Shown piece by piece: positions 19,013 to 42,227 of a DNA stretch of 64,000 nt. The notes below the pieces were generated by a model. It did no database searches. It was not told where the DNA came from and saw only the letters and a list, made by a program, of their open reading frames with translations. The position numbers and the translations under genes were made by a program. Location of the stretch: the NCBI GenBank assembly GCA_045589955.1, contig JAZNQD010000009.1:48294-112293 (forward strand). The letters are read 5' to 3'. Numbering within the stretch: the first letter of the stretch is position 1; every line of letters begins with the position of its first letter. The stretch comes from Bacilli bacterium. Lineage in GTDB: Bacteria > Bacillota_I > Bacilli_A > ML615J-28 > CAG-313.

Positions 19013-19015
19013 AAC

Positions 19016-21596: not shown

Positions 21597-21649
21597 AAGA
21601 TTTGTCCTAGCTTAATTTACCTATTATCTAGAACATTTAGTGATATAAT

Positions 21650-22104: not shown

Positions 22105-22155
22105 GATTTAATATCCTTTTTTTAATATTATCATTTTATAGAACGGTTATTTAAT

Positions 22156-22231
22156 TGGTTGCGAGGGGAGGAATTGAACCTCCTACCCCAAGGTTATGAG
22201 CCTTGTAAGCTAACCGTTGCTCTACCTCGCA
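22156..22231 (-). tRNA. tRNA-Met (CAT), second copy
   Basis: Acceptor TGCGAGG/CCTCGCA, anticodon stem CAAGG/CCTTG with loop CTCATAA, T-arm GGAGG-TTCAATT-CCTCC, CCA. Confidence 0.65.
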
Positions 22232-23119: not shown

Positions 23120-23274
23120 TTTATAATTCCTGAATCATAGCACGTTCCTTTATGAATATGAGTTACGGTTTTTGGTTCAACCTCTGCTACACATTTCGTT
23201 ATACTTATTACACATACACAAATAATTATTGCACGTAAAACAGAATTTAAACAATATACCAAAACTTTTTTCAT
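23116..23274 (-). CDS. small Cys-rich hydrophobic peptide (52 aa)
   Basis: Hand-translated MKKVLVYCLNSVLRAIIICVCVISITKCVAEVEPKTVTHIHKGTCYDSGIIK; ATGA overlaps at both ends (coupled to guaC-like and mazG-like genes). Confidence 0.35.
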   Translation of the reverse strand: MKKVLVYCLNSVLRAIIICVCVISITKCVAEVEPKTVTHIHKGTCYDSGIIK

Positions 23275-28697: not shown

Positions 28698-28794
28698 AGC
28701 AAATCCTAGACTTTAAATTATTTTAGCATTTATTATAGAATTTATACGCGACAACCGTTCTAATAAATAAATGTTAAAAAGGAGAATATTCTTT

Positions 28795-29085
28795 ATGTTT
28801 GAAACTGTAAAACAGATTTTTAAGAAAAAGCCAAAACAGACTGAAGTAACTAACACTCTCATTAATGAATCTTTGGCTTTTCAAGACAGAAAATTACAAC
28901 AAATTAGTTTAGAAATTAAACCAGCAGGCAATGAAACCGTTTTAATGCTGACTGAAAAGAAATCTAATACTGAGATAGCATTAGACCAAGAAATCTGTTT
29001 TGTTTTAGCTGCGGTTTTACAAGAATATTCACTTAATGGAAATATACGTAAAATTATAAAAGAAATCGAAAAAGGGAATAATTAA
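28795..29085 (+). CDS. hypothetical protein
   Basis: Start moved to ATG 28795 (AAAGGAG RBS 9 nt upstream); GTTCTAAT motif at 28757. Confidence 0.5.
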   Translation: MFETVKQIFKKKPKQTEVTNTLINESLAFQDRKLQQISLEIKPAGNETVLMLTEKKSNTEIALDQEICFVLAAVLQEYSLNGNIRKIIKEIEKGNN

Positions 29086-29447
29086 TGGAAAATGCTTATA
29101 AATTAGCAGAAGTTTTATTAACTGATATTGATGCACATGCAGAAGCTTTTACATCAGAAGAAGGTAAAATGATTGCAACATCTGATTCTGTTATGGCATT
29201 AAATAAAATCTTAGAGAAAGCTTTTACTCTACATAAATACTTAGTTGAAAAAGAATTATACGTTGGTAAGCCTTCAATTGAAATTGCTTTGGTTGAATTA
29301 CAAAAATATATGGAAAAATTACAAATAAACCAAGAAAATGCAGAAAAATTAAATTTGTCTAATGCATTACAATTATGGAATCAAGCAAAAATAGCCGCTG
29401 CAATATTAGCTTGCAATTTATTAGATTTTAGAGATTCTTTAAACTAG
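29085..29447 (+). CDS. hypothetical protein
   Basis: 120 aa ORF, overlapping start/stop. Confidence 0.5.
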   Translation: MENAYKLAEVLLTDIDAHAEAFTSEEGKMIATSDSVMALNKILEKAFTLHKYLVEKELYVGKPSIEIALVELQKYMEKLQINQENAEKLNLSNALQLWNQAKIAAAILACNLLDFRDSLN

Positions 29448-29457
29448 GAGTAAATTT

Positions 29458-29907
29458 ATGTACGGTACTTCTAATATGACTTACTATAAGCGTTCTACAC
29501 CTAAGCCAAAAACAACTAAAATTAAAACAGTACAACCCGAAATTAGTTCCGAACACGATCTACAAAAAGCATGTGTCGCAAAATTAAGTGCACACAATAT
29601 GTTATGCTTTTGTACAGATGTTTTTAATGGTATGTCATTTATTCGTGATATTAAATTTAAAGCCATTTATAAAACGCATATGGAAAAAATGGGTGCACGC
29701 AAAGGTCAACCAGATTTAATTATTTTAAATCGTGGTAAATGTACATTTGTTGAATTTAAATGGAATAAAGGTAAAAAATCACCAGACCAAGAAGCAATGT
29801 GCAATTTAATTACTAGTATGGGTTATGAAGTTTTAGAATGGCGTACCCTAGAAGATTGTACAAATTGGATTTTAGCTAATGTAGATTTAAACCAGAAAGA
29901 AGAATAA
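29458..29907 (+). CDS. VRR-NUC domain nuclease (PD-(D/E)xK)
   Basis: GQPDLIILNRGKCTFVEFKWNKGKKSPDQ matches VRR-NUC D...E.K core. Confidence 0.55.
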   Translation: MYGTSNMTYYKRSTPKPKTTKIKTVQPEISSEHDLQKACVAKLSAHNMLCFCTDVFNGMSFIRDIKFKAIYKTHMEKMGARKGQPDLIILNRGKCTFVEFKWNKGKKSPDQEAMCNLITSMGYEVLEWRTLEDCTNWILANVDLNQKEE

Positions 29908-29908
29908 T

Positions 29909-30382
29909 ATGCCAGTTTGGAAACAATTAGCACAATCTACACCAAAAGTATCACCAGGTGCAGTAAATAATTCATCTAAAACAAATATTAGTAATTTTAA
30001 TTTGCAATATGATTCAAAAAAGAAAATTATTACATATTATGGATCAGTTGCATCTAGCTCTATGCCGGGTGGATACAATGTAATAATTAGTTTTTTAAAT
30101 GTAGGTCCAGAAGACGGTCTTACAGATGATGAGATTTTACAAGGCTTTAAACCAAAACCATCTCTTGCTAACAATGAAGTCCAAGTAAGATGTTCTTGTC
30201 CGGCATATCGTTTTAGATTTGACCAAGCTAATAGAAGTCATGGTGCAGGTACAGGTAAAAAGTTTCCAAATTACCATAGAAAAACAGATCGCGCTCCAAA
30301 TAATCCAAATAATTTACCCGGCTTTTGTAAACATCTTTTGGAGTTCGTTGAATATTTACAGCGTCAAGGATTTATACATTGA
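29909..30382 (+). CDS. SWIM zinc-finger protein
   Basis: CSCPAYRF...PGFCKHL gives a CxCxnCxH SWIM signature. Confidence 0.5.
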   Translation: MPVWKQLAQSTPKVSPGAVNNSSKTNISNFNLQYDSKKKIITYYGSVASSSMPGGYNVIISFLNVGPEDGLTDDEILQGFKPKPSLANNEVQVRCSCPAYRFRFDQANRSHGAGTGKKFPNYHRKTDRAPNNPNNLPGFCKHLLEFVEYLQRQGFIH

Positions 30383-30972
30383 TTAAAGTTTCTATAATAA
30401 TCCCCGTTTATAATACTGAAAAATACATAAGAAAATGTCTAGAATCGGCAATTAATCAAACTTTAACCGATATTGAGATAATTTGTATTAATGATGGTTC
30501 AACAGATAATAGCCTAAGTATATTATATGAATATGCAGCTAAAGATTCTCGTATACGTGTATTCACTAAAGCAAATGAAGGTGTAGCAAAAGCACGTAAT
30601 TTAGGTTTACGTCATGCTAGAGGTGAATATGTTGGTTTTATAGACAGTGATGATTTTGTAGATGAAAAATACTTTGAAGAATTATATAGCTATGGTCCAC
30701 AATACGATGTGATACGTGGAATAAGAGTTATAGATGAAACTAATAAACAAGGTAAGAATAAATATGGTTGCATTATTCCATCTATAATAAAAAGAAACGT
30801 ATTAGTTAAGCATAATTTATTTTTCCCTAATAGAAAATCTGGAGAAGATAGTACATTTAAACGCTGGCTTTATAACGCAACTCGAAACATTTTTGAATGC
30901 CCAGATAAAGGTATATATTATCATTATATGCGTAGAGCCGGGTCCCTTTCTAACTATGATATAAAAGAGTAA
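30379..30972 (+). CDS. family 2 glycosyltransferase
   Basis: VSIIIPVYNTEKYIRKCLESAINQTLTDIEIICINDGSTDNS ... FIDSDD (DxD). Confidence 0.75.
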   Translation: MIKVSIIIPVYNTEKYIRKCLESAINQTLTDIEIICINDGSTDNSLSILYEYAAKDSRIRVFTKANEGVAKARNLGLRHARGEYVGFIDSDDFVDEKYFEELYSYGPQYDVIRGIRVIDETNKQGKNKYGCIIPSIIKRNVLVKHNLFFPNRKSGEDSTFKRWLYNATRNIFECPDKGIYYHYMRRAGSLSNYDIKE

Positions 30973-30976
30973 TATT

Positions 30977-31669
30977 ATGACACAGCCTTTAGTCTCAATT
31001 ATTTTAACAGTATATGATACCAAATTACAATATTTACAAGAATGTATAGAGAGTCTTTTGCAACAAACTCACAAAAATATTGAAATTATTGTAATTGATG
31101 ATGCTTCTCCAAATACTACCTATGATCACATTGTAGAATTTTCAAATAAAATCAAGTTGTATAGAAACCCTGAAAATTTAAAAATGAATAAATCAGTAAA
31201 CAAAGGATTCGATTTATCAACAGGTAAATATGTAGTTAGATTAGGCAGTGATGATATTTTTCATAACGAAATGCTAGAAAAAGAAGTAGCTTATCTTGAA
31301 AATCATCCAGAAGTCGGCGCAGTTTGTTGTGAATTAAAACGTTTCGGTTGTGACCAGCATCAACATATTAGACGACCGAAAACTTGGAATTATAATAATA
31401 TTGTAAACAATCGAATTTTTGCCGGTACTGGTTATGCTGGTGGTATGATGTTTAGACACGAACTTTTGGAATTTTGTTCAATAGATGAAGATTTTAAGAT
31501 GTGTGAAGATTTTGATTTTCATCTACAATTATTGAAACATATGCCCATTGCAAGTATTCATGAGATTTTATATTATTACCGCTCGCACGAAACAAATTTA
31601 TGTAAAAGTGTAAGCCGTCAAGAACGATGGGCTCTTTTAGATAAGATTATTGCTAAACACAAAAACTAA
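30977..31669 (+). CDS. family 2 glycosyltransferase
   Basis: VSIILTVYDTKLQYLQECIESLLQQTHKNIEIIVIDDASPNTT ... LGSDD. Confidence 0.7.
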   Translation: MTQPLVSIILTVYDTKLQYLQECIESLLQQTHKNIEIIVIDDASPNTTYDHIVEFSNKIKLYRNPENLKMNKSVNKGFDLSTGKYVVRLGSDDIFHNEMLEKEVAYLENHPEVGAVCCELKRFGCDQHQHIRRPKTWNYNNIVNNRIFAGTGYAGGMMFRHELLEFCSIDEDFKMCEDFDFHLQLLKHMPIASIHEILYYYRSHETNLCKSVSRQERWALLDKIIAKHKN

Positions 31670-31724
31670 TTTATTCTTTTAATATCAAGTTCTAATACAA
31701 TATTTAGAATAAAGAGAGTAAATT

Positions 31725-32696
31725 ATGCCTGATATAACATTAAATATCCCTTCTAATAGTAAATTTCACAGTAGCCTTAACGAAATAGATTTGGCTATGG
31801 GTGCAGTTTTACTCAATCAAATGAGAATAGCTGATCCACGTAATAAGCTGGGTTTGCAAGACGTTTTAGCAACAGAAGAAAAAAATGATTGGTTATGGGA
31901 CTATTCTAGGGTTTTTCAAGTAGATGAATTAACCACAGAAGAAATATTTAATACTTATTTATTACGCAAAAATATTAATAAAGAAAAAGGCGTAGATATT
32001 ACTTATCCAATCTTAGCATACTTACAAAACGATTTAGAAACAGTATTTTGGGGTACAGGTAATAGATTTAGACAATGGTATTTTGATTTACCAACACCGG
32101 CTGATTCTTGGGAGGTTGGTGATTCTGTATTTATTACGGCACCAGCTAAATATAGAGGTTTACAAGGTGAAATAGAAGAAGTAAAGACAGAAGATTCCCA
32201 GTTATATTGTAAATTGTCTATTAACGGTCAAATTATCACAAATACACTTCCTAATTTTAAAAAAGAAGAAATGTGGTTTAAAATAGAAGACCTTCGTCAA
32301 GTTGGCGATAAAACACCTTCAACTTATAAAGCTAAATCTGTAAAAGGTACGTATACGGCTGTAATATTGTGTGATAATAGAGACGAATTACAATATTTGC
32401 GTGATAAATTTATTTTACGCTGTGCTGATGGTCAAATTTGGCATAAATACGCATCTCCTTCAATTAACGGCGCTGAAAATCAATTATTTACAGTATTTGA
32501 TATTCCTAACATTGAAAGATATCCTGCTTCACAAGATAAATTAAAAGGTGAAGGTTATATCTACGGCTCTGCATTTAAGATTAATTATTGGGGATGCTTA
32601 ACAGATACACCATTACCGCAATCATTAATTGAGACAATCCGTATGAATATTCATGTAGAAGGAGACGGTAGAACTAATCGAATAGTTATTAGTTAA
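31725..32696 (+). CDS. hypothetical protein (late operon)
   Basis: 323 aa; GTTCTAAT motif at 31686. Confidence 0.55.
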   Translation: MPDITLNIPSNSKFHSSLNEIDLAMGAVLLNQMRIADPRNKLGLQDVLATEEKNDWLWDYSRVFQVDELTTEEIFNTYLLRKNINKEKGVDITYPILAYLQNDLETVFWGTGNRFRQWYFDLPTPADSWEVGDSVFITAPAKYRGLQGEIEEVKTEDSQLYCKLSINGQIITNTLPNFKKEEMWFKIEDLRQVGDKTPSTYKAKSVKGTYTAVILCDNRDELQYLRDKFILRCADGQIWHKYASPSINGAENQLFTVFDIPNIERYPASQDKLKGEGYIYGSAFKINYWGCLTDTPLPQSLIETIRMNIHVEGDGRTNRIVIS

Positions 32697-32821
32697 TATA
32701 AACAATTACAATATTTTAATTAATATAGGTTCTAGTTTTATATATTTCTAGTTTAATTTTCATATTACAATAGTTCTAGTTTTTAGTTTATAATCAAAAT
32801 ATATTAAAGGAAAAGATACAA

Positions 32822-33889
32822 ATGGCAAAATTTTTGAAAAGACTTTCTGCTCGTGTAGCTCGTGAAGCTTTACGTGAAAGTGCAAAAGAAGCTAAAAACT
32901 GGATCGTTTCTAGAAAATTGATTTTAGAAACTGAAGAAGGTGATATTGAATTCGATAAAGGTGAAACAGTTGAAATCGGTGCTACACCTGAAGGTGATAT
33001 GGCATTGAATGGTTCTGCTGCTGTTGTTGTTATTTCAGATGCTGATTTAGCTGCTAAGATTGCAGACGTTGTTGTTTCTTCTGATGAATTATCTGACGTT
33101 AACTTCGTTGAAAAACCAGCTTTAGATGCTGTTATGGACGGTGAAGAAGTTGATGATGTAATCGACAGTCTTGCTGATGACGACAATGATGAAGTTGAAG
33201 TTGCAGAATTAGACATTGAACAAAAAGAAGCTGTTGAAACTAAGTTTGCTAAATTTAGTGAAAATCGCATGAATCCTGCTAAGTTCTTTGTTTGCGAATC
33301 AATTTTGGTTGACGAAACTGATAATGCTCCTCTTAACTTAAGACTTATCAAAACTGATTCAGTTAAAAAAGAAAGTTTCTCTGAATACAAAAAATTCGCT
33401 GGTCGTGTAGCTGAATTAAATGGTTCAATTCAACCAGGTAAAAGAGAAATTGCTTTGTCAGAAGCTGGCGAAATCATGGGTGCATATGATACAGAAGCTA
33501 ATGCTGGTGAAATTTATCCTGAAAACACATTTGAATCTGTAGATGCTATGGATAATTTCGATGCTGCTCCTGCTGCTTTGATGCAATATGAAGATTATGG
33601 TGATAATGCTGAAGTTCTCGAATCTGCATTAGGTGCTTTCGAAGAATCTGCAAAATCTGGTAAAGATTACGTTGCTTTAGTTGAAGCTGTTGAAAAAACA
33701 GGTTTGGCTGAAGAAGCAGTTGCTAAAATCGTAGCTACTTTTGATAATCGTTCTTTAACAGAATGCGTACGTGCTTTTGATACAAAGTATGGTAAATATG
33801 TAGCTGCATTTAAAGAATCTGTGGATTGCGACAACTTCATCGCTGAAACAGGCGAAGAAAAACGTTTCACAAAGCGTTTCTTCGCGTAA
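32822..33889 (+). CDS. highly acidic protein (possible scaffold / internal virion protein)
   Basis: 355 aa, D/E rich, strong AAAGGAAAAG RBS, own terminator; function inferred only from composition and position. Confidence 0.55.
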   Translation: MAKFLKRLSARVAREALRESAKEAKNWIVSRKLILETEEGDIEFDKGETVEIGATPEGDMALNGSAAVVVISDADLAAKIADVVVSSDELSDVNFVEKPALDAVMDGEEVDDVIDSLADDDNDEVEVAELDIEQKEAVETKFAKFSENRMNPAKFFVCESILVDETDNAPLNLRLIKTDSVKKESFSEYKKFAGRVAELNGSIQPGKREIALSEAGEIMGAYDTEANAGEIYPENTFESVDAMDNFDAAPAALMQYEDYGDNAEVLESALGAFEESAKSGKDYVALVEAVEKTGLAEEAVAKIVATFDNRSLTECVRAFDTKYGKYVAAFKESVDCDNFIAETGEEKRFTKRFFA

Positions 33890-33920
33890 TTACATCTTTA
33901 TAATGTGATTAAAAAATACA

Positions 33921-33952
33921 AAAAGGGTTCCTAATTTTGGGACCCTTTTTTA
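33921..33952 (+). terminator. rho-independent terminator
   Basis: AAAAGGGTTCC-loop-GGGACCCTTTTTTAT. Confidence 0.6.
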
Positions 33953-33981
33953 TGTTCTATAGAAATATATTAAACTAGCTT

Positions 33982-34272
33982 ATGGAAAGTAAAATGTATT
34001 TGATACGAGAAAATGTACAAGATGAAGAAATAACTGGTTATTGGATCGATGAAAAAATTAATGGTAAATTAATTGAATCCCATTTCGTAACAAAAGACTT
34101 AAAGACTTGCTCTTGCAGATATTTTGCAGAATCCAAAAACCCTTATAATCATTTTCATATCAATTTATGCTCGTATTGGATAAAATCTGGTAAACCACAA
34201 TGTGCAATGTATGCTAAATCAAAAAAAGGTAAAATCGTTGTGCTTTGTCCAGGTTTTACTAAAATTAAATAA
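33982..34272 (+). CDS. small Cys/His-rich (SWIM-like) protein
   Basis: CSCRYFAESKNPYNHFHINLC plus C-terminal Cys residues. Confidence 0.45.
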   Translation: MESKMYLIRENVQDEEITGYWIDEKINGKLIESHFVTKDLKTCSCRYFAESKNPYNHFHINLCSYWIKSGKPQCAMYAKSKKGKIVVLCPGFTKIK

Positions 34273-34380
34273 GCTTAACAATTTATATTTACTAAAGTTC
34301 TAATTATAAAATGATTGTAATATTATAATAAAATACGTATTCTTTTATAAGTACAAAAAGTTTTAATGAGGATAAAAAGC

Positions 34381-35112
34381 ATGAATCTTAGAGATCGTTT
34401 AACACAAGCTGCAAAAAACAGTTTAAGTGAAGGATTAGAAAGTTCAAAAGATATCATCGGTGATAACATTGTTCCTTCTTTTGAAGAAATGGGCATGGCA
34501 AGCGTTGAACCAGGTGAATTCGCACAAGGTGAAATTACTGATCAAGAAAATTTAGTAAACAAAGGCAATATGTCTAACGATAATACTTTCAATAGCGAAA
34601 AAAATGACGCAGGTTCTGAAGTTGCTAATGCTATTGATGATATGGTAGATGATATTGTTGATATTTCAGATAAAGATGAAGATTCAGAAGTAGCATCTAT
34701 TGAAATTACACAAACGACAGAAGATGATGCTGAAAAATGCGAAGAAAAGAAATGTAATCCATTTGGTGAATCTACTTTCGCAAAATTAGTTGAAAATGCT
34801 TTGGGCGGAAAAACTTGTGAGCAATATTTAAAAGAATCTGGCAACTACGCAGGTCCATTAGATTTCGTACCAGATACACGTATCAACGTTTCAGATGTAT
34901 TAACTACTTTAAAACGTGAATTAGGTGAAGGTTCAGAAGGTATTCACGTAGATCAAGTATACGATGAACGTAGAAACAATGCTTATCAAGTTTCACAATT
35001 CGATAAAGAAAAGTTACCTAAAAAAATTCAAGTAGAAAACGTATTGCTTGAATTAGATGGTGATACATATAAAGTAAATAAAGTTAGTGATTCTTTCCCA
35101 TTAGCTCGTTAA
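34381..35112 (+). CDS. acidic hypothetical protein
   Basis: Start moved to ATG 34381 (GAGGA RBS); D/E rich. Confidence 0.5.
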   Translation: MNLRDRLTQAAKNSLSEGLESSKDIIGDNIVPSFEEMGMASVEPGEFAQGEITDQENLVNKGNMSNDNTFNSEKNDAGSEVANAIDDMVDDIVDISDKDEDSEVASIEITQTTEDDAEKCEEKKCNPFGESTFAKLVENALGGKTCEQYLKESGNYAGPLDFVPDTRINVSDVLTTLKRELGEGSEGIHVDQVYDERRNNAYQVSQFDKEKLPKKIQVENVLLELDGDTYKVNKVSDSFPLAR

Positions 35113-35126
35113 TATCAGAGGCTAAT

Positions 35127-36023
35127 ATGAGATTTATACCAAAAGTAAAAGAACCTATAGTAGAATCTGTAACGGTAACGGTAACCGAAGCAGAAGTTAA
35201 TCCATTAGAAACAAATGGTGTTGATTTATCTTACGATGAACAATATAAACAGGCTATTTTAAAAGCAATAGGTAGTGAAACCTCTGCTCATGTAGAGTAT
35301 GATCAAATATTAGCCCTTGAACCACATGTCAGTACAAAATCATTAGTAGATTTATTTCACGATACATTAATAGATATTCGTGACGAAGAAATGAAGCATA
35401 TCGCTCAGCTTACAACTAAAATAAGCGAAGTACCTGAAATGAAAGCTTCTTTTGAGGCTGGTGAAGAAGAAGCAGAAACTGGTGAAGACAAAGAAACCTC
35501 TAATCAAGAAGAAACAGAAGAAAACGAAAAAGAGGAAGTTAAAGAATCCGTGGAATTATTGACTGAAGCTGTACAAACAAATCGTTTATATGATACTTAT
35601 ACAATCTCACAAATAATTGCAGATAAGCTTGGGTTAAATGATAAACAATATGAAATTATAGAAGATATGTTTAGATATGCCGATGATGAATTAGAAGCCG
35701 GTGAAGTCGATTCATATCTTGTTAAAATTTCAGAGTACTTTAGAATTTCAGATCATAAATTAGAAGAAATTGAAAACGCAATTATTGCATCTAATGACCC
35801 AATAGCAGATAGAAAAAGTGAATTTGCTGATGACATTCAATCTGATATTTATGATATTGAAAATACTATAGAAAAAGTATCTTCTATTGCAGCCAAAGAA
35901 AAATTATACTCTGTAATTGAATATCTTAAAAACTTAGAGTATAATGGTGAAAAAGAAGTAGGCTGGTCAGTAAGACATTCTATGTTTGGTAGTAGAAATC
36001 CAAAGAAAAGGATTGTTGCATAA
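35127..36023 (+). CDS. acidic hypothetical protein
   Basis: 298 aa, E-rich central region. Confidence 0.55.
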   Translation: MRFIPKVKEPIVESVTVTVTEAEVNPLETNGVDLSYDEQYKQAILKAIGSETSAHVEYDQILALEPHVSTKSLVDLFHDTLIDIRDEEMKHIAQLTTKISEVPEMKASFEAGEEEAETGEDKETSNQEETEENEKEEVKESVELLTEAVQTNRLYDTYTISQIIADKLGLNDKQYEIIEDMFRYADDELEAGEVDSYLVKISEYFRISDHKLEEIENAIIASNDPIADRKSEFADDIQSDIYDIENTIEKVSSIAAKEKLYSVIEYLKNLEYNGEKEVGWSVRHSMFGSRNPKKRIVA

Positions 36024-36406
36024 TGTCAAAAACGAGAACTTTATTTACAGAAGCTTTGAATCCTTTAAATAAAATTGCAAATAGCATTATTAAAAAATTA
36101 AACTACATCGAGTCAAGTTTAATCTTAGAAACACAAGATTTTGAAAAAGCTAAAGGTTATTTACATAAAACAGCATTATTTCATTCAAATTCTTATGATG
36201 AATTAAACGAAGAACAACAAAATCTCGTTCTAGAAAAAGTATGGAATACAATTCATAAGGTATTAGGTCAAAAACCGGTTGAAGAATCTGATAATTTAGA
36301 AGAATTAGAAGCAAAAATCTATAATTTTTTGAAAACGAACGGTGGTATCTTATATCCTTTAGAATTGTCAGCGAAAAAATTAGCTCAAGCAATTAAAGAA
36401 AAATAA
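36023..36406 (+). CDS. hypothetical protein
   Basis: 127 aa, ATGA overlap with upstream gene. Confidence 0.5.
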   Translation: MSKTRTLFTEALNPLNKIANSIIKKLNYIESSLILETQDFEKAKGYLHKTALFHSNSYDELNEEQQNLVLEKVWNTIHKVLGQKPVEESDNLEELEAKIYNFLKTNGGILYPLELSAKKLAQAIKEK

Positions 36407-36412
36407 GTAGAT

Positions 36413-37321
36413 ATGACAGATTTAAAAAGGAAGACAATTACCCAGCCATGGTTACATACCAAAGAATGGGCAGATAAACAACATATAAGTTACCCAAACA
36501 ATGTCCTTTCTGAAAAAGCACGTTCCTTTTTAACGTATACAATGCCAGAAAAACCATATCCTAATGATTTAAACTTAGATTTGGTATATATTTTAAAAGC
36601 AAGTGAATCAAATCCAGATATAAGAATTTCTTTACGTTCGGTTGCTAAGTTTTGTAATTTTAGAAGAATTTGGATTGTAGGATATAAACCTTCATGGATT
36701 AAAGGTGTAAGATATATCCCAACTATTCAAAACCAAGATAAGTGGAAAAATAGTATAATCAATTATATGGCAGCGTGTAATTGTGAAGAAGTATCTGAAA
36801 ACTTTATCTTAATGAATGACGATTTCTTTGCATTAAGACCAATTTATAACTGGCGAGAAAACTTAAATGTTTGTTTAGGTAAGTTATCAGATGAAGTAAG
36901 GAAAAACGCAAATAATCCTAAAAAATCACGCTGGAAATATGGATTTGATTATGCCGTAGATACCTTAAAAGAATTGAAATGTGAAAACGAATTCAATTAC
37001 GAAACACATTTACCAATTATCATTAATAAAGCTAATTTTAAACAAATGATGAAACTTCCTATTATTAAAGACTTTATGGTAACAAGAAAAGTCTTACATA
37101 AGAGAAGTATATATAAGAATCTTTATCCAGATTCTGTTCTTACTAATCCTCGTAGAATTGATGATGTTAAAATTACTCTAAACCAAGACTTATCGGATGC
37201 ATGGCTAAGAGAAGATTGGTTAAGTGTTTTTGACGATACAGTGGGAAATACTAGACAATATCCAAAGCTAAATCAGTTTTTAAGTAGTTTATTTTCAGAA
37301 AAATGTAAATTTGAAGTATAA
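36413..37321 (+). CDS. Stealth-family protein (hexose-1-phosphoryltransferase / capsule phosphotransferase homolog)
   Basis: LDLVYILKASESNPD (CR1-like), DIRISLRSVAKF...RIWIVGYKPSW...FILMNDDFFAL (CR2-like: LRYSLRS, IVT, YLNDD), ETHLPIIINK (CR3-like). Confidence 0.55.
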   Translation: MTDLKRKTITQPWLHTKEWADKQHISYPNNVLSEKARSFLTYTMPEKPYPNDLNLDLVYILKASESNPDIRISLRSVAKFCNFRRIWIVGYKPSWIKGVRYIPTIQNQDKWKNSIINYMAACNCEEVSENFILMNDDFFALRPIYNWRENLNVCLGKLSDEVRKNANNPKKSRWKYGFDYAVDTLKELKCENEFNYETHLPIIINKANFKQMMKLPIIKDFMVTRKVLHKRSIYKNLYPDSVLTNPRRIDDVKITLNQDLSDAWLREDWLSVFDDTVGNTRQYPKLNQFLSSLFSEKCKFEV

Positions 37322-37491
37322 TACTTTAAGTTTAGAATATATAGCCAATAATAATCTAAATTTCAAAAAGTTCTATAAGTTAGAAGAATTTATGGGATGG
37401 TATGATAAATTAGATTAATACTTTATTATATCCTTTTCAAAGTTCTAATAATTAACTTTGATATTAAAAGAGAAACAAGGATTATAAAGAA

Positions 37492-39453
37492 ATGGCTAAC
37501 TATAAATTTCCGGGCGTATACGCTTCTATTAGAGATTTAAGTGGAGTTGTTGCAACTAATAGTACAACAGCTTGCGCATTCGTTGGTGAAGCGGAGTATG
37601 GTCCAGTAAACACTCCAGTTTTATTATCTACATTACAAGATTATACAGATCGTTTTGGTTCACTTAGCTCAAAATACGGTTACGCCGGATATTCATTAGC
37701 CGTTGCTGCTGATACTATCAACGAACACTATTTTGTACGTGTTGTTCCAATGGGTGATCCAGAAACTCCAGTTGAAGAACGTGTAAATGATGCTCACTGG
37801 GCAGCAGCTTTTGTACCAGTTACAGGTAATACAAAAGAGCTTCCTGCTTCTAAAGGTTATTTCTACGAAGAAGTTAAAGCTGCTCAAACTTCTCGTGATG
37901 CAGGTGCTGCTTCTGGTTTATTTGCTAAAGATGATGTAGATTCTGCGTTCTTAGTAATGGCAAATGATCCAAACAATCGTAAATTTTACATTTCATTAGC
38001 AGACAGTACAATTAACGAAAACCGTGCATATTCAGTATTAGCACCAACTAGATTTGAACACGAGTCTGGTGATTCAGAAAGAACATTTGTTACTGTAACA
38101 GTTCCAGCCAGTGTTGTTGATGGTATCGAAGAAGGTTCAGCAATCGTAGTTTCTCGTATGTCAAACGATGTTCTCAACGGTACATTCAAAGTATATGATT
38201 GGGCATTAGATGGTCAAACTGCTACAATTACTTATATCGTTAATGAATTAGTAGATGAAACAAATGATGCAAATGCACGTGTAGGTCGTTATCCAGATAA
38301 TAATCAAACAACTTTTACCGTAAACGTAATGGAAAAAGTTGGTCGTGTAATGCAAACTCTTGAAACATTTGAATATTGTACATTATATCCAAGCCAAGAT
38401 AACTATGGTAATTCAATGTTCATCGAAGACGTAATTAACGGCTCTTCAAATTACATTCAAGTATTTGTAAATAACAATTTCACAGATGAAGATCCAGATG
38501 CAGTAGTTATTCCAGCATTTGTTGAAAACTTACCTTTAACAGGTGGTAAATCTGGTAACTGGACAGATATGAATCAAAAATACACTGACTTAAATGCAGC
38601 ATGGGAAAACTTCCGTGACCGTTCTCAAGTTGGCGTATCATTGTTGATGAACAGTGGTTATGTAACAAAAGAAAATGTTTCATACCAAGCAAAAATGTTA
38701 GAAATCGCTGAACATCGTCGTGACTGCTTCTGCTTGTTCGATTCTCCAATGACAGAAACTGATTACGAAGATTTGATTGACTGGAGAAAAAATATTCAGG
38801 GCTTTAACTCATATCGTGGCGCAGTATCTGCACCTTGGGTTAAAACATATGATTCTGTTCAAGGTCGTGCAAACTTTGTAATGTGTCCATCAGCTTATGT
38901 TGCTAAAATCATGGGTAATGGTCAACCTTGGGTTGCTCCTGCTGGTTTAAATCGTGGTGTTCTTACATCAGCAACTGTTTCACCTACAGGTTTAACACAA
39001 TACTATGACCAAACAAAAGGCGGTAACATTTACGCTGATAATCAAGTTAACTGCATTATCAAAGATCCAAGTTCTGGTTATGTAAACTGGGGTCAAAGAA
39101 CATTACAAGCTAAACCTTCTGCATTAGACAGAATTAATGTAGCAAGAACAGTTATTTATATCGAAACTGTATTACGTGATGCAGCTAAATGGCACTTATT
39201 CGAAAACAATACAGCTTACGAACGTATGCAAATTACCTTACAATTCACAAGTTTCTTAAATTCAATTTTAAGTGCTGAAGGTATTCAAAAGTTCCAAGTT
39301 GTATGTAATGAAACAAATAATACTCCTTTAGTAATTGCCAACAATCAATTGGTAGTAGATATTTATTTGTGGCCAACATATACTGCAGAAGTTATCATTC
39401 TTAACACAACAGTTATGGGTGCAGACACTACAGTTACCGTTACAACTGCTTAA
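37492..39453 (+). CDS. tail sheath protein
   Basis: N-terminal YKFPGVYASIRDLSGVV...ACAFVGEAEYGPVNTPVLLSTLQDYTDRFGSL matches contractile tail sheath N-terminal consensus (PGVY..E...afvG...GP.n.P.l..s...f...FG); 653 aa; GTTCTAAT motifs upstream, terminator downstream. Confidence 0.75.
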   Translation: MANYKFPGVYASIRDLSGVVATNSTTACAFVGEAEYGPVNTPVLLSTLQDYTDRFGSLSSKYGYAGYSLAVAADTINEHYFVRVVPMGDPETPVEERVNDAHWAAAFVPVTGNTKELPASKGYFYEEVKAAQTSRDAGAASGLFAKDDVDSAFLVMANDPNNRKFYISLADSTINENRAYSVLAPTRFEHESGDSERTFVTVTVPASVVDGIEEGSAIVVSRMSNDVLNGTFKVYDWALDGQTATITYIVNELVDETNDANARVGRYPDNNQTTFTVNVMEKVGRVMQTLETFEYCTLYPSQDNYGNSMFIEDVINGSSNYIQVFVNNNFTDEDPDAVVIPAFVENLPLTGGKSGNWTDMNQKYTDLNAAWENFRDRSQVGVSLLMNSGYVTKENVSYQAKMLEIAEHRRDCFCLFDSPMTETDYEDLIDWRKNIQGFNSYRGAVSAPWVKTYDSVQGRANFVMCPSAYVAKIMGNGQPWVAPAGLNRGVLTSATVSPTGLTQYYDQTKGGNIYADNQVNCIIKDPSSGYVNWGQRTLQAKPSALDRINVARTVIYIETVLRDAAKWHLFENNTAYERMQITLQFTSFLNSILSAEGIQKFQVVCNETNNTPLVIANNQLVVDIYLWPTYTAEVIILNTTVMGADTTVTVTTA

Positions 39454-39473
39454 TAAACAAAGCTTTAGTAATA

Positions 39474-39510
39474 AAAGGGATCTTAGAAATAAGGTCCCTT
39501 CTTTATTATA
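39474..39510 (+). terminator. rho-independent terminator after sheath gene
   Basis: GGGATC-loop-GGTCCC followed by TTCTTTATTAT. Confidence 0.5.
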
Positions 39511-39566
39511 TGAGTTCTATATACTATATGTAAAGCAAGGAATAGCTTAAAGGAGCAAACTAAATA

Positions 39567-40157
39567 ATGGCAAAAACAAATACACCTTGGGTTGGTACAT
39601 TAGCTGAATACGAAGCTTTAGAAATACATGATCCTAAAGTAACATATATTATTACAGATGACGTAGAAATTACAGATCTTATAAAAGACGGTGAAGTATC
39701 CGAAAAAACAACTTTTTCTTCACGTAAAATACTATCTTTACTTAAACAAGCTCTTCCTCCTATGCCTGATGATAAAGATAGATTATTACATGCAAATGGC
39801 GAAGGTTATGAATGGATATTAGCAGATAACTATAGAAAACACACTGATTTTTTAGCTTCACAAGCTTTTATTGGTGCAAAATCAATTAACTTAACTCTCT
39901 ATGCTTCAGGAAGTGTATATGAAATGCCAGAATGTGGATATTTAGTGCTCAATAAATACGCTGAAGCAACAGGTGAAGTAATGTCTATTTGGAATAATAC
40001 CAACGCTGTACTTTTAGATATAGCATATTCAAGTGTACCACATTCTATAGGTTGTTTAATTTGCCCAGTAAGTAAAGGTGATTTAATTAAAATACAATAT
40101 GATTTTTCTGGCGAAACCAAAGCCTTTAAGTTTATTTATGCGAAAGGTTGTGAATAA
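39567..40157 (+). CDS. putative tail tube protein
   Basis: 196 aa ORF immediately after sheath gene (positional inference only). Confidence 0.35.
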   Translation: MAKTNTPWVGTLAEYEALEIHDPKVTYIITDDVEITDLIKDGEVSEKTTFSSRKILSLLKQALPPMPDDKDRLLHANGEGYEWILADNYRKHTDFLASQAFIGAKSINLTLYASGSVYEMPECGYLVLNKYAEATGEVMSIWNNTNAVLLDIAYSSVPHSIGCLICPVSKGDLIKIQYDFSGETKAFKFIYAKGCE

Positions 40158-40462
40158 TGAGTCAATGGTTAGGATATAAAGATAGTGTAATTGTGGCAGT
40201 AGCAAATACACGTTATGAATTAGAAAATAGCCCATTAATAGTATTAGATAATATTGTTAAGACTGAAGACAAATATGTATTAATTAAAGGCAAATACGTA
40301 TTAGAAACAAAATCACACAACGATAAAGCAATTGCAGCCAGACTTGCAGAATACCCATCAATAGAAGACCAGTTGGATATGATTTATTGGGATAGAGTTA
40401 ACAATACCAACGTTTGGGAAAATACAATTACAAGAATCAAAAAACATTACCCTAAGGATTAA
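40157..40462 (+). CDS. hypothetical protein
   Basis: 101 aa, ATGA overlap. Confidence 0.5.
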   Translation: MSQWLGYKDSVIVAVANTRYELENSPLIVLDNIVKTEDKYVLIKGKYVLETKSHNDKAIAARLAEYPSIEDQLDMIYWDRVNNTNVWENTITRIKKHYPKD

Positions 40463-40464
40463 GT

Positions 40465-41334
40465 ATGACTATTAGACAAGGTGATAAAATAGTAGCAGGT
40501 TCAGTAGTAAACCATGACTATTTGGAATTAGAAAATAAACCCGTAATCAACAATATTGTTTTACGTGGTAGTTTTACATTAGCAGATTTAGGAATACAAC
40601 CAGCAGGTGATTATCTTAAGCGTGATGAATATTTATTTTATGTTAATACTTCTACAGAATCATTAGATACTTTATATAATAATCTTTTAACTGCACTTAA
40701 CAAAAATTCTTTAGATATTAAACATTTTATACACACTGTAAAAAATGAATTAGAAGACTACGCTAAAAAAGAAGACTTGTATAAAGTGAAAGAAGATTGC
40801 TCTGATTATACTAATTTGCGCAATACACCGGATTTAAAAACCTTAGACCAATATGCAACTAAAGATCTTTTAAACGAATTCATAACAAGAGATGATTTCA
40901 ATAAAGCTCTGTCTCAACTCGATTTATCAGAATATTGTAAAAAAGAAGAATTACCGAAATTACAGTCAACAACCGCCGAGTGTAATTATATAACCAAAGA
41001 ACAACTAGACATAATGTTAAAGCGTTATGTATTAGAGAATGATTTTGAAGTACGCTTAGCCGATGAATTGAATAATATTTCATCTGAAGAAAACTATGTC
41101 GAATTAAATCAAAAAAATAAAAAAAGACAAGAACGTGATGATAAATTAAACGCTGTAATTTGGCGAATAGAACGTTATGAACAACAACTTAAATTAGGAA
41201 TAGAAACCTTAGATACAGAAAAAACATATTATGGTTTATTGCAATATGTTCAGTATTTACGCGATATTCCTCAACAAGATGCTTTTCCAAATATAAACAT
41301 TTTAACTTTTGAAGAATACTTAACAACTATCTAA
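40465..41334 (+). CDS. fibre-like structural protein
   Basis: N-terminal ELENKPVINNIVLRGSFTLADLGIQPAGDYLKRDEY shares the KP.IN.V.L.GN..L.DLGIQ motif with minus-strand tail fibres. Confidence 0.5.
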   Translation: MTIRQGDKIVAGSVVNHDYLELENKPVINNIVLRGSFTLADLGIQPAGDYLKRDEYLFYVNTSTESLDTLYNNLLTALNKNSLDIKHFIHTVKNELEDYAKKEDLYKVKEDCSDYTNLRNTPDLKTLDQYATKDLLNEFITRDDFNKALSQLDLSEYCKKEELPKLQSTTAECNYITKEQLDIMLKRYVLENDFEVRLADELNNISSEENYVELNQKNKKRQERDDKLNAVIWRIERYEQQLKLGIETLDTEKTYYGLLQYVQYLRDIPQQDAFPNINILTFEEYLTTI

Positions 41335-41345
41335 GAGAAATAATC

Positions 41346-42227
41346 ATGGCAATTAGAATTTTACACAGTGTTTTACCACCAGCCACTGACGATAAAAAAG
41401 GTGGTATTATAGTAGGTAACGATTTAGATGTAACGGCTGATGGAACTTTAACAATTGGTGGTGTTATTTCTGAAATATCTGGTAAAGGTGGATCTTGGTT
41501 ATACACAGATGGTACTAAACTAGAATGGAAAGCTTTACCTGGAACCATTGCTGTTGATAGACTTAATACAGCCTTAGTCACAAGTACCTATTTAAAAGGA
41601 AGTCAAGGCGAGGCAATATTAAACAGTTTGGCTTCAAGTGGTACATATGTTGCATTTTCTAAATATAACTCTACAAATGGTAAATTTACTATAGCTGGCC
41701 ATCAAAATAAAGTACAATTACATTATATGGCTAATACTACAATTGATGCGGGAACCAATGCTCCTACTAAAACTGTAACCTTCTTAGACGAATCTGGTAA
41801 TTCTTCATTTCCAGGTACAATTACTGCGCCATTATTAAGTGGTACTGCTACAGCTGCTCGTTACGCTGATTTGGCAGAAAAATATATTGCTGATAAAAAA
41901 TATCCAATTGGTACATTGGTTTGTTTTGGTGGTGAAAAAGAAATAACTGAAGCAACTAAAACTGTAAACGGTGTAGTTTCTGAAAAGCCGGGTTTTATTC
42001 TCAATTCTGAATCAAAAGGCTTACCTGTTGCTCTAGCTGGTAAAGTAAAAATTCGTACAATAGGTAAAGTAAATAAATTCGATAAACTAGTATTAAGTAA
42101 TACACCCGGTGTAGCTCGTGCACGTAAATGGTATGACCTATTCAAAAAGACTATTGCAATAGCTCTAGAAACAAATGCCGCAGAAGCTCAAAAATTGGTC
42201 TGTGGTGTAACGAAATTTGTTTTGTAA
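41346..42227 (+). CDS. fibre/baseplate-like structural protein
   Basis: 293 aa Gly/Thr-rich beta-type composition. Confidence 0.45.
   Translation: MAIRILHSVLPPATDDKKGGIIVGNDLDVTADGTLTIGGVISEISGKGGSWLYTDGTKLEWKALPGTIAVDRLNTALVTSTYLKGSQGEAILNSLASSGTYVAFSKYNSTNGKFTIAGHQNKVQLHYMANTTIDAGTNAPTKTVTFLDESGNSSFPGTITAPLLSGTATAARYADLAEKYIADKKYPIGTLVCFGGEKEITEATKTVNGVVSEKPGFILNSESKGLPVALAGKVKIRTIGKVNKFDKLVLSNTPGVARARKWYDLFKKTIAIALETNAAEAQKLVCGVTKFVL

Follow-up and report, generated by a model that had tools for sequence, protein, structure and literature searches.

A phage protein of 302 residues, encoded within a block of tail/neck morphogenesis genes, is, to judge from its sequence, a stripped-down member of the Stealth superfamily, with the four conserved regions and almost none of the spacer segments of cellular members. 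Our best reading, which we hold tentatively, is that this Stealth-like protein is a sugar-1-phosphate transferase that builds a phage glycan together with glycosyltransferases of family 2 (GT2), most probably on a virion protein of the tail or neck. The window (the whole stretch of 64,000 nucleotides that was analysed) comes from an uncultivated contractile-tailed phage of roughly 230 kb and 30% G+C from gut or rumen metagenomes. The phage is large and looks lytic; no lysogeny genes were seen. The three open reading frames are present where the preliminary description had placed them, all on the plus strand: GT2a (30379-30972, 197 residues), GT2b (30977-31669, 230 residues) and the Stealth-like gene (36413-37321).

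The Stealth-like protein

Stealth homology had been proposed from CR1-, CR2- and CR3-like blocks in the translation. These blocks are present and show the strongest conservation within the family, and the homology holds. The protein, a putative minimal Stealth-fold sugar-1-phosphate transferase (core residues 55-302, preceded by a lineage-specific extension of residues 1-54), matches PF11380 (Stealth_CR2) with an E-value of 3.9e-6, below the preset limit of 1e-3, although the 27.4 bits of the match fall well short of the gathering score of 39.4; no Pfam match was obtained for CR1, CR3 or CR4. A profile of the family has GNPTAB, the eukaryotic GlcNAc-1-phosphotransferase (PDB 7s05, 7s6n, 7dxi, 9bgg), as its sole sequence-profile match in the PDB (E 1.6e-6), and fold comparison strongly reinforces the relationship. 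Residues N135, D136 and D137 of the NDD motif, H199 and P201 of the HxP motif, and R231 are invariant in 79 of 79 diverse relatives. N135-D136-D137, H199 and R231 correspond to the metal-binding aspartate, catalytic histidine and essential arginine of GNPTAB (D407/D408, H956 and R986) and of Mycobacterium tuberculosis CpsY. GNPTAB coordinates Mg through D408, cannot do without R986 and is proposed to use H956 as its base (PMC9388126); CpsY coordinates Mg through D324 and cannot do without R419 (PMC10668966). Among sub-threshold segments, the phage E-x-H199-x-P aligns with A-H956-M-P of GNPTAB, and LFPxKCKFE in the C-terminal part pairs with MFPIPSQFE. What is directly supported is the homology, the fold and the conservation of residues.

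Two positions differ, and activity or chemistry could therefore differ as well. The near-universal CLND signature of CR4 reads SVFD in the phage protein, and the family varies at the position that aligns with N1151 of GNPTAB, a residue that ligates Mg/phosphate and without which activity falls 200-fold (PMC9388126). Together with a Pfam score under the gathering threshold, these differences would suit a fold relative with altered chemistry, for example an ordinary GT-A glycosyltransferase or a nucleotidyl or other transferase. Such a change is improbable given that the phosphotransfer-specific histidine base in H-x-P and the essential arginine about 30 residues later are invariant across the 79 diverse members.

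The bacterial Stealth hexose-1-phosphate transferases used for comparison are the Neisseria meningitidis capsule polymerases CsaB/SacB and CsxA, and CpsY (PDB 8j2n). Like them, the phage protein retains a CR1-like DLVYI, the SLRS and NDD of CR2 and the His and Arg of CR3, appears soluble and cytoplasmic, and is associated with glycan-synthesis genes. Its core of about 230 residues is shorter than the catalytic fragment of CpsY (about 320 residues), and the S1-S3 spacer segments, which gate the cavity in CpsY (PMC10668966), are largely missing. GNPTAB is a membrane protein of 1,256 residues with Notch, DMAP and EF-hand inserts, gamma subunits and proteolytic activation, whereas the phage protein amounts to a bare catalytic core. 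In contrast to the bacterial enzymes, its family is overwhelmingly phage-encoded. A phage-borne Stealth homologue had been considered unusual, but the family is large (3,850 clusters, at least 554 IMG/VR loci, PHROG 7999), predominantly phage-borne and never named, the gene being called 'hypothetical' in 40 of 40 listed phage records.

The glycosyltransferases and their coupling to the Stealth-like gene

The assignment of the two other enzymes to GT2 stands, both scoring above the curated cut-off of PF00535 (GT2a 1.6e-37; GT2b 1.6e-30 across the whole domain). Both are small soluble proteins. GT2a, of GT-A type, shows the DSDD and GEDS motifs in its translation, and its TTG start overlaps the preceding stop. 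No membrane or hydrophobic segment was found in GT2a, GT2b or the Stealth-like protein.

The proposal that the GT2 and Stealth-like enzymes form one glycosylation module, and with it a functional link between them, is supported by sequence comparison, through gene fusions and conserved adjacency in other phages. Three natural fusions of 522-946 residues (P0241, P0250, P0251) carry a GT2a-like domain, 46-55% identical to the first 103-129 residues of GT2a, before a Stealth-like domain of 37-46% identity; their contigs are phage-like, and the order is that of the unfused pairs. In unrelated large phage contigs (L015/L016 and L091) the gene immediately before the Stealth-like one is a GT2b orthologue (57% and 50% identity), and in L015/L016 the two genes share a stop/start overlap. 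GT2, pyruvyl transferase and Stealth-like genes are contiguous in a further locus (L066). In a freshwater phage lineage the Stealth-like gene abuts, in two arrangements, a cassette of GT1, GT-A-like (without a Pfam match), GT47-like, FkbM methyltransferase and GT1_2 genes.

It is also conceivable, though rather unlikely, that the GT2 pair neighbours the Stealth-like gene without any functional tie to it, being a mobile accessory cassette with a target of its own. The cassette is an accessory hot spot within the lineage, occurring as GT2a with GT2b, as GT2a alone, as pyruvyl transferase with GT2 and GT2a, as GT2a with a gene of no assigned function, or not at all, while the Stealth-like gene is constant; two relatives (L009 and L014) have no GT2 genes yet keep it. 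That the GT2 pair and the Stealth-like gene belong to different transcription units, divided by a terminator, would agree with such independence, as would the 25 of 39 dereplicated groups that show no glycosyltransferase in the examined flank. At least 14 of the 39 do show one, in a count where many loci are short and detection covered a few seed families only. The fusions and the GT2b adjacency argue for a shared function, since they involve close relatives of exactly these GT2s.

Gene map and promoter-like sites

All genes of the block described below are on the plus strand. The GT2 pair closes a six-gene unit (28771-31669) headed by GTTCTAAT at 28757-28764; in five relatives (L007, L001, L006, L009, L014) GTTCTA precedes the orthologous first gene by 30-35 nt. 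The four conserved genes ahead of the pair (28771-30382), with orthologues of 33-72% identity in relatives, encode proteins of 104 and 120 residues, a VRR-NUC endonuclease (29458-29907; endonuclease/resolvase matches to PHROG 93/5702, and VRR_NUC found in relatives) and a protein of 157 residues. The next gene (31725-32696) encodes a tail terminator or sheath-stabiliser protein similar to gp15 of T4, with a small beta-barrel domain inserted; its GTTCTAAT motif at 31689-31696 is kept at -35 to -42 in five of the six relatives examined. It is followed by a conserved acidic protein of 355 residues (32822-33889; pI 4.3; orthologues 57-80% identical; no family match in Pfam and PHROG searches) with GTTCTAG motifs upstream at 32729 and 32773. 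A strong intrinsic terminator (33920-33950, a 12-bp stem and a T run) then divides the upstream units from the Stealth-containing unit. Beyond it lies a conserved Cys/His-rich protein of 96 residues (33982-34272), with its own GTTCTA motif at 33954 and a Pfam SWIM match that is not significant (E 0.092).

The Stealth-like gene is the last of a four-gene unit (34366-37321) headed by GTTCTAAT at 34297-34304, a site kept at -41 to -60 in four of six relatives. The other three genes (34366-36406; 248, 298 and 127 residues, the first two products very acidic) are lineage-specific and gave no matches in Pfam, PHROG or the PDB. Their orthologues occur in all relatives and are contiguous with the Stealth-like gene even in rearranged regions; in L005 the order is Stealth-like gene, a 52-residue protein and the homologues of the 248-, 298- and 127-residue proteins, with the sheath gene 9 kb off on the opposite strand. 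In the window, the Stealth-like gene lies between the gp15-like tail terminator and the sheath. The sheath gene (37492-39453; PF17482 1.6e-9; PHROG 23 6e-67; tblastn matches to T4-like and jumbo-phage sheaths) is preceded by GTTCTAAT at 37442-37449, kept at -49 to -54 in six of six relatives, and by a second copy of the motif, GTTCTAT, at 37370. An intrinsic terminator follows it (39475-39500).

This map does not agree with a single transcription unit for the three enzyme genes, as the terminator and the motif-bearing gaps at 31689, 32729, 32773 and 33954 separate them. The preliminary description had also placed all three just upstream of the sheath. That is correct for the Stealth-like gene but not for the GT2 pair, which lies 4.7 kb upstream of the Stealth-like gene and ends 5.8 kb before the sheath.

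A late motif in front of all three genes had been claimed as well, and the sharing of a motif is borne out: one conserved GTTCTA motif stands upstream of the GT2 unit, the tail-terminator gene, the Stealth unit, the sheath and the tail-fibre blocks. The exact 8-mer occurs four times against 4.5 expected, a number that by itself is not above chance, with all four copies on the plus strand in intergenic gaps. The core hexamer GTTCTA is wholly intergenic in 20 of 38 copies, compared with 12% of the window (binomial P 2e-9), and at least two of the 20 (9900, 19397) fall in tRNA-gene regions, where they may reflect T-arm sequence and not promoters. Copies of the hexamer point towards downstream genes and are kept at matching offsets before orthologous genes in six diverged relatives. 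The motif is found, too, in front of genes unconnected with the virion, RNase H among them, so that late timing is unproven.

Proposed pathway and acceptor

We infer a chemistry, donor, order of action and acceptor as follows. By analogy with GNPTAB and CpsY, the Stealth-like enzyme would bind UDP-hexose or UDP-HexNAc, D137 (together with D136) coordinating Mg2+. H199 would deprotonate the acceptor hydroxyl and R231 would stabilise the beta-phosphate under attack, so that sugar-1-phosphate becomes joined to the acceptor through a phosphodiester and UMP is released. The soluble pair GT2a and GT2b most likely serves this pathway too by adding further sugars, and the outcome would be a phosphate-containing anionic glycan made in the cytoplasm at a late stage of infection. 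Since the glycosyltransferase cassette is a variable hot spot and the Stealth-like gene belongs to the lineage core, the Stealth-like step is probably constant and the GT2 steps a strain-variable elaboration.

The substrate might instead be a host envelope glycan (LPS/O-antigen, capsule or a teichoic-acid-like polymer) or a free poly(oligosaccharide phosphate), serving for instance to mask receptors, block superinfection or keep progeny from sticking to debris. The substrates of canonical bacterial Stealth enzymes and of pyruvyl transferases are polysaccharides, not proteins, which counts against a virion-protein acceptor, and a polysaccharide pyruvyl transferase is found in the relatives' cassette. 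Where bacterial Stealth proteins have been characterised, they synthesise or decorate capsular polysaccharides and exopolysaccharides (PMC1285062; PMC10668966; PMC5974469). Cellular copies in Saccharibacteria adjoin GT4 and ATP-grasp genes. The GT2::Stealth-like fusions resemble the capsule polymerases CslB, Cps12B, Cps1B and Ccs2, in which GT-A and hexose-phosphate transferase domains produce poly(oligosaccharide phosphate) (PMC5974469); the phosphotransferase domain of those enzymes is TagF-like, not Stealth, and the likeness is a functional analogy that implies no homology. Stealth polymerases are themselves described as single-domain (PMC5974469), whereas members of the phage family are sometimes fused to GT2. 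GT2a further matches PHROGs annotated as GtrB-like O-antigen conversion (2e-17), which recalls the phage-borne GT2 enzymes of temperate-phage GtrA/GtrB/GtrC clusters. GtrB, however, is anchored in the membrane and has a flippase and a periplasmic transferase as partners, whereas the three enzymes of the window are without membrane segments, and neither the block nor the relatives showed a flippase gene, a GtrA/GtrC-like gene, a polymerase/exporter gene or one for lipid-carrier priming. In a large, apparently lytic phage whose enzymes share a motif with tail genes there would be little time for envelope remodelling to pay, and the repeated siting by major tail or sheath genes would be left unexplained. 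An envelope target is possible, but we regard it as somewhat unlikely.

Hypermodification of phage DNA, such as sugar-phosphate or glycans on hydroxymethyl-pyrimidine that evade restriction, is very improbable. Phage glycosyltransferases of several folds do glycosylate DNA, according to work cited in PMC12619734. The GT2 unit contains the VRR-NUC nuclease, and the Stealth-like gene is surrounded by dCMP deaminase, dUTPase, ThyX and NrdD genes in one distant relative and adjoins a DNA methyltransferase in Gaia. We know of no DNA-modifying enzyme with a Stealth fold, and a scan of about 40 ORFs of the window, which holds the minor part of the genome, turned up neither a hydroxymethylase or 5-hmdU kinase gene nor any further gene for base hypermodification. 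Siting in the tail/neck modules of three unrelated lineages also argues against a DNA target.

For the glycan that we favour, the likeliest acceptor, and the least secure step of the proposal, would be a virion protein of the tail/neck region. GNPTAB acts on glycoproteins, and the Stealth fold can therefore serve protein-linked acceptors. The neighbours are mixed. In cluster-K-type mycobacteriophages the Stealth-like gene directly precedes terminase, which speaks for a virion context. In several other phages its neighbours are non-structural (dCMP deaminase, dUTPase and ThyX; rIIA/rIIB; or HSP20 and an AAA ATPase) and do not point to a virion target. To our knowledge, mycobacteriophage virion glycosylation involves no Stealth enzyme or phosphodiester linkage; it proceeds through GT-A/GT-B glycosyltransferases. 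The likeness lies elsewhere: mycobacteriophages such as Che8, Corndog and Myrna likewise use their own soluble glycosyltransferases, on capsid and tail-tube proteins (Freeman et al. 2023, as relayed in PMC12363180 and PMC12619734), and the genes lie in structural modules of some phages. In Streptomyces phage TurkishDelight, and at a Streptomyces chromosome locus that is probably a prophage, the order is double GT4, major tail protein and Stealth-like gene, so that glycosyltransferase and Stealth-like homologue flank the major tail protein.

The Stealth-like protein

The product of the gene at 36413-37321 (+ strand), a putative sugar-1-phosphate transferase of 302 residues, shows a divergent but recognisable resemblance to the Stealth enzymes. 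The protein alone matches the Pfam model of the second conserved region, PF11380 Stealth_CR2, over residues 68-145 with an E-value of 3.9e-6; the score of 27.4 bits is below the curated gathering score of 39.4, and the Pfam models of CR1, CR3 and CR4 give no match. A family profile is required for comparison with PDB sequences, as a single-sequence phmmer search against them returns only noise. An NCBIfam scan gives no match, and the protein is assigned to PHROG 7999, 'unknown function'. A database search produced 200 homologues, the majority of which carry a precomputed CR2 match. In Pfam, CR2 is matched by all 41 aligned homologues (best E-value 3.9e-9) and CR4, weakly, by 21 of them (best 0.0042). 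Among PDB sequences, the profile of these 41 homologues matches the catalytic domain of GlcNAc-1-phosphotransferase (GNPTAB), CR2 included, with an E-value of 1.6e-6, and also CpsY weakly. The AlphaFold model built from the same alignment is confident (pLDDT 90.4) and has a Stealth fold, the top 13 PDB matches found by Foldseek all being Stealth structures.

Six positions, N135, D136, D137, H199, P201 and R231, are invariant in an alignment of 79 diverse members from IMG/VR, cultured actinophages and bacterial assemblies. CR1 has been defined as a short N-terminal motif, IDVVYTF or a close variant (PMC1285062). It is recognisable in the window protein as L-D56-L-V58-Y59-I-L (DLVYI compared with IDVVYTF), and its D, V and Y are present in 70, 74 and 66 of the 79 members, respectively. 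CR2, which spans about 100 residues and is the best conserved portion of Stealth proteins, is represented by SLRS and the metal-binding NDD (N135, D136 and D137), the latter found in every member, and CR3 by E-x-H199-x-P and R231, of which H199, P201 and R231 are found in every member too. In sub-threshold HMMER segments, E-x-H199-x-P is aligned to A-H956-M-P of GNPTAB. R231 is located 32 residues past the catalytic His, as compared to 30 for R986 of GNPTAB, and this spacing suggests that the two arginines correspond. The CLND/CIND tetrapeptide of CR4 is 'almost universally conserved' in Stealth proteins (PMC1285062). The window protein does not have it and reads S271-V-F273-D274 (SVFD) where a sub-threshold alignment places C-L-N1151-D of GNPTAB; S271 is kept in 78 and D274 in 51 of the 79 members, and position 273 is variable. 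The family and GNPTAB have in common the upstream D251-x-K253, the 'DD(V/I)(K/R)' flank and a C-terminal 'FP....FE'.

The conserved core of the family is only about 230 residues long (window residues 55-302). Most of the spacer segments, which in CpsY surround and gate the active site and the deletion of which raises the activity of CpsY (PMC10668966), are therefore missing from the family. By its fold and catalytic residues, the protein almost certainly belongs to the Stealth superfamily. The homology claimed in the preliminary description is borne out by the profile match and by the retention of NDD and HxP, and we read the family as a genuine yet divergent, minimal clade of the superfamily.

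In GNPTAB, D408 coordinates Mg and D407 helps to hold the ribose and a second Mg, H956 acts as a base on the acceptor hydroxyl, which it deprotonates, R986 is essential and stabilises the phosphate, and N1151 is a ligand of Mg and of the beta-phosphate, the mutation of which costs 200-fold activity (PMC9388126). The Mg-binding Asp of CpsY is D324 and its essential Arg is R419 (PMC10668966). Judged by homology and residue conservation, the phage protein would follow the reaction described for GNPTAB. A UDP-sugar would be bound with Mg, the acceptor hydroxyl, assisted by the His, would attack the beta-phosphate, the Arg would stabilise the reaction and UMP would leave. The Stealth-like protein is thus probably active as a sugar-1-phosphate transferase.

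The gene block and its transcription units

The window has a G+C content of about 30%. Its Stealth-like gene is part of a + strand block (28771-42227). Helicase and DnaB-like genes, transcribed divergently from the block, lie to its left, and tail-fibre-like genes on the - strand lie to its right. The open reading frames of the two glycosyltransferases, of the Stealth-like protein and of the tail sheath, which follows it at 37492-39453 (+), are all exactly as first described. The product of 31725-32696 has a tail-terminator (T4 gp15-like) fold. As the block contains tail terminator, sheath and fibre-assembly-like genes, it represents a tail/neck morphogenesis region.

The gene order of the block (genes being named by the length of their products in residues) is 104, 120, VRR-NUC, 157, a variable cassette, 323, 355, 96, 248, 298, 127, Stealth-like and sheath, and this backbone is conserved in seven relatives with protein identities of 45-83%. 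With a pI of 4.3-4.4, the 355-, 248- and 298-residue proteins are very acidic, and no relative with a known function could be detected for any of them; in profile searches, the 323-, 298- and 248-residue proteins do not match any PDB sequence. The 248/298/127 trio (34366-36406) has stayed contiguous with the Stealth-like gene in spite of a rearrangement in L005, a member of the window's lineage, where the trio occupies 11137-13087 and the sheath gene is 9 kb away. These three genes are the tightest partners of the Stealth-like gene in the lineage. Two of their products are extremely acidic and contain low-complexity linkers, and a pattern of E..Y...EE.KH is conserved close to the N-terminus of the 298-residue protein. 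The 157-residue (29909-30382, +) and 96-residue (33982-34272, +) proteins are small, conserved, Cys/His-rich and SWIM-like by eye; in Pfam, a SWIM match is found for the 96-residue protein only and is non-significant (E-value 0.092). One of these two genes directly precedes the glycosyltransferase cassette.

The glycosyltransferase and Stealth-like genes had been placed in one 'late transcription unit'. The block is instead split into several units by gaps carrying a promoter-like motif and by a terminator. Every larger intergenic gap of the block contains the hexamer GTTCTA, with + strand sites at 28757, 31689, 32729, 32773, 33954, 34297, 37370, 37442 and 39514, and strong intrinsic terminators are found at 33920-33950 and 39475-39500 (both +). 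The glycosyltransferase genes form the end of a six-gene unit (28771-31669), and the Stealth-like gene forms the end of a four-gene unit (34366-37321).

The exact 8-mer GTTCTAAT, of which GTTCTA is the core, occurs in the window at chance level and is not over-represented there. The hexamer is fully intergenic in 20 of its 38 copies, compared with 12% intergenic sequence (P 2e-9), at least two of these 20 (9900 and 19397) being in tRNA-gene territory, where they may match T-arms instead of marking promoters. The intergenic copies point to starts located 8-126 nt downstream, and the distance from the hexamer to the orthologous genes behind it is retained in six relatives, the proteins of which are only 45-80% identical. 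A scan for the sigma-70 consensus shows no enrichment (85 sites as compared to 75.7 expected). The hexamer precedes the sheath and tail-terminator genes and the - strand tail-fibre blocks, and 'late' expression of these units is a reasonable inference. It goes no further than that, because the hexamer also precedes an RNase H gene and small genes of the tRNA region.

A variable glycosyltransferase cassette

GT2a (30379-30972, +; 197 residues), the TTG start of which overlaps the preceding stop codon, and GT2b (30977-31669, +; 230 residues) are glycosyltransferases of family 2, the members of which are inverting and have a GT-A fold. They match PF00535 with 129.5 bits (1.6e-37) and 106.7 bits (1.6e-30), respectively, both well above the cut-off of 23.3 bits, and their translations contain the DxD motifs 'DSDD' and 'GSDD'. 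The sugars and acceptors of the pair cannot be named, since all matches to NCBIfam equivalogs are far below the cut-offs. The maximum of 19-residue hydropathy is at most 0.9 in both proteins, and neither has a hydrophobic segment. The pair thus lacks the membrane anchor of the GtrB component of Gtr-type O-antigen conversion (membrane GtrB, GtrA flippase and GtrC), and genes of the GtrA or GtrC type are found neither in 28771-42227 nor in the syntenic relatives. As GT2a, GT2b and the Stealth-like protein are all devoid of membrane segments, their reactions would take place in the cytoplasm.

The slot between the 157-residue gene and the 323-residue, tail-terminator gene (30382-31725 in the window) is a hot spot, the glycosylation content of which varies among the relatives. 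It is occupied by GT2a and GT2b in the window and L007, by GT2a alone in L090, by a pyruvyl transferase, a GT2 and GT2a in L001, by GT2a and an unknown gene in L006 and by a longer GT2 in L010, and it is empty in L009 and L014. Because the cassette varies and the Stealth-like gene is constant, the latter belongs to the core of the lineage and the GT2 genes to its accessory part. By itself, this accessory status would argue that the GT2 genes are independent of the Stealth-like gene.

Probable coupling of the Stealth-like enzyme with glycosyltransferases

The argument for independence has to be weighed against natural gene fusions. Three proteins encoded on phage-like contigs, P0241 (946 residues), P0250 (564 residues) and P0251 (522 residues), consist of an N-terminal GT2 domain with 46-55% identity to GT2a and a C-terminal domain with 37-46% identity to the window Stealth-like protein. 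At one fusion locus, an AAA ATPase gene is followed by the GT2::Stealth gene, paralleling the unfused AAA, GT2 and Stealth-like genes of L015, an unrelated large phage contig. In L015/L016 and in L091, another large phage contig, both with a backbone other than that of the window, an orthologue of GT2b (57% and 50% identity, respectively) is directly upstream of the Stealth-like gene, with a stop/start overlap in L015/L016. A Stealth/glycosyltransferase fusion had also been considered in CslB, a meningococcal polymerase, but its phosphotransferase is TagF-like (PMC5974469), and CslB is only a functional analogy to the phage fusions.

Other glycosylation partners are found elsewhere in the family. 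The GT2, pyruvyl transferase and Stealth-like genes of L066 form one overlapping run. In a group of IMG/VR contigs (L038/L039, L063 and L069, all at ~10000-15900, and L061, L062 and L082), which presumably represent a freshwater phage lineage, a conserved five-gene cassette abuts the Stealth-like gene in two arrangements and orientations. It encodes a GT1, a 253-residue protein labelled GT-A-like from its sequence and without a Pfam match, a GT47/RXYLT1-like protein, an FkbM methyltransferase and a Glyco_trans_1_2 protein, and several 2OG-Fe(II) oxygenases are encoded nearby. In the Streptomyces phage TurkishDelight (L088, 16432-20015) and in the chromosome of Streptomyces sp. Act143 (L097), the locus of which is probably a prophage, a conserved trio consists of a double-GT4 gene, the major tail protein gene (65% protein identity between the two) and the Stealth-like gene. 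The two-domain GT4 also matches the Pfam model 'GT4 in conflict systems'. In a Saccharibacteria genome, the Stealth-like gene adjoins a GT4 gene and an ATP-grasp gene. By crude detection, with many contigs being short, a glycosyltransferase is found within the flank in 14 of 39 dereplicated groups.

These associations make it very likely that the family in general acts together with glycosyltransferases in glycan synthesis. The natural fusions, the adjacent orthologues and the other glycosylation partners further argue that the window's Stealth-like enzyme is probably coupled in function to its own GT2a and GT2b, and the two are plausible partners despite lying 4.7 kb upstream of it.

The acceptor

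The placement of the Stealth-like gene in structural modules of three unrelated lineages, the motif that it has in common with the tail genes and the precedent of phage-encoded virion glycosylation of the Che8/Corndog type (Freeman et al. 2023, as summarised in PMC12363180 and PMC12619734) favour virion proteins as the acceptor. This assignment is tentative, and our confidence in it is low for two reasons. Other family members are located among nucleotide-metabolism, rII or chaperone genes. Moreover, the substrates of canonical Stealth enzymes, like those of pyruvyl transferases, are polysaccharides. An acceptor in the form of a host-envelope glycan or a polymer would agree with such chemistry and comes close behind, with the structural placement speaking for the virion. 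Modification of DNA by the Stealth-like and GT2 enzymes has no support in the window, as no genes that would go with it were found among the window ORFs scanned.

If the product decorates virions, phage virion glycosylation would extend to phosphodiester-linked glycans, which would have consequences for how the immune system recognises therapeutic phages. Should host polymers be its target, phages would be directing the remodelling of the envelope in a new way. A more elaborate version of the virion reading, which we consider unlikely, would be the first viral phosphoglycosylation. The spacer-less Stealth enzyme would put sugar-1-phosphate directly on exposed residues of virion tail/neck proteins or on their glycans, and the variable GT2, GT4, pyruvyl transferase and methyltransferase cassettes would build on it to give anionic glycans that differ between strains and shield or tune the surface of the particle. 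Such a system would be widespread in tailed phages and would also be present in cultured phages of mycobacteria and Streptomyces.

Distribution of the family

The known Stealth enzymes include those that synthesise bacterial capsules and the human enzyme of lysosomal targeting, and a phage-borne member had been expected to be unusual. In sequence space it is common. An exhaustive profile search gives 3,850 clusters (at 50% identity) with E-values of 1e-3 or better, the weaker of which may include canonical Stealth proteins, and 2,406 at 1e-10 or better; most of the 3,850 are stand-alone proteins of 225-260 residues. Two short peptide patterns recovered at least 554 confirmed loci from IMG/VR. 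Similar patterns, one residue longer, recovered 39 from prokaryotes (one genome each of 185,579 species), several of which are evidently phage contigs or prophages. A tblastn search finds a homologue in 50 deposited phage genomes, the hosts being Mycobacterium, Gordonia, Microbacterium and Streptomyces, and the annotation under the match is 'hypothetical protein' in all 40 matches listed. A full-text literature search found no description of a viral Stealth member, and the family appears to have been unnoticed so far.

What is new is the recognition that phages have a large clade of minimal Stealth proteins, which had gone unannotated, is devoid of CLND and of the regulatory spacers, and sometimes occurs as a fusion with GT2. 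The comparison shows that this mostly phage-borne clade retains the Stealth catalytic core and is tied in evolution to glycosyltransferases, even by fusion. The core of the preliminary interpretation can thus be kept; the single transcription unit and the exceptional status among phages have to be given up, and the GT2 cassette turns out to be accessory. A name and a testable chemistry become available for a 'hypothetical protein' of many sequenced phages, some of which, e.g. those of M. smegmatis and Streptomyces, are genetically tractable. The minimal 230-residue enzymes could also serve in the chemoenzymatic synthesis of sugar-phosphate polymers.

Further domain arrangements are found among the representative proteins. 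P0241 and P0242 share a domain of about 300 residues without a Pfam match, P0260 is a multidomain form with a C-terminal extension of 300 residues, and in P0349 and P0334 the N-terminal domain is of the DxD type.

The host and other genes of the window

A megablast search of 30000-38000 against 50,697 phage records gives no match and no near-identical relative, and the phage therefore has no close cultured relative among them. The closest relative in the genome collection, L090, which is fully syntenic and has 75% identity, was placed by binning in a MAG of the Succinivibrionaceae, and L091, a 245-kb contig that encodes a homologue with 43% identity, in a 'Bacilli' bin. The two are probably phage contigs that were carried along in the binning. 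As these bins contradict each other, no host is assigned from them.

The - strand region 9849-22231 contains twenty tRNA genes in scattered clusters amid small ORFs. The set covers 18 of the 20 amino acids, with Val and Lys absent and Met and Ser present twice, which fits a large phage. An ORF for a phosphopantetheine-binding (ACP-like) protein (19684-20106, -; 1e-8) overlaps a predicted tRNA-Gly (19944-20019, -), and probably only one of these predictions is correct. Other - strand genes encode a KilAC antirepressor domain (6698-7183; 7e-22), a DnaJ-domain protein (8880-9410; 1e-22), a SAM lyase family protein of the anti-restriction type (11121-11696; PF23780, 4.8e-12) and a homologue of IMP dehydrogenase/GMP reductase (23271-24449; PF00478, 8e-55). 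The gene at 14080-15114 (-) encodes a homologue of F420-0:gamma-glutamyl ligase (CofE-like; PF01996, 5e-46). Such a gene is unexpected in a phage, and its product might ligate glutamate to a substrate other than F420.
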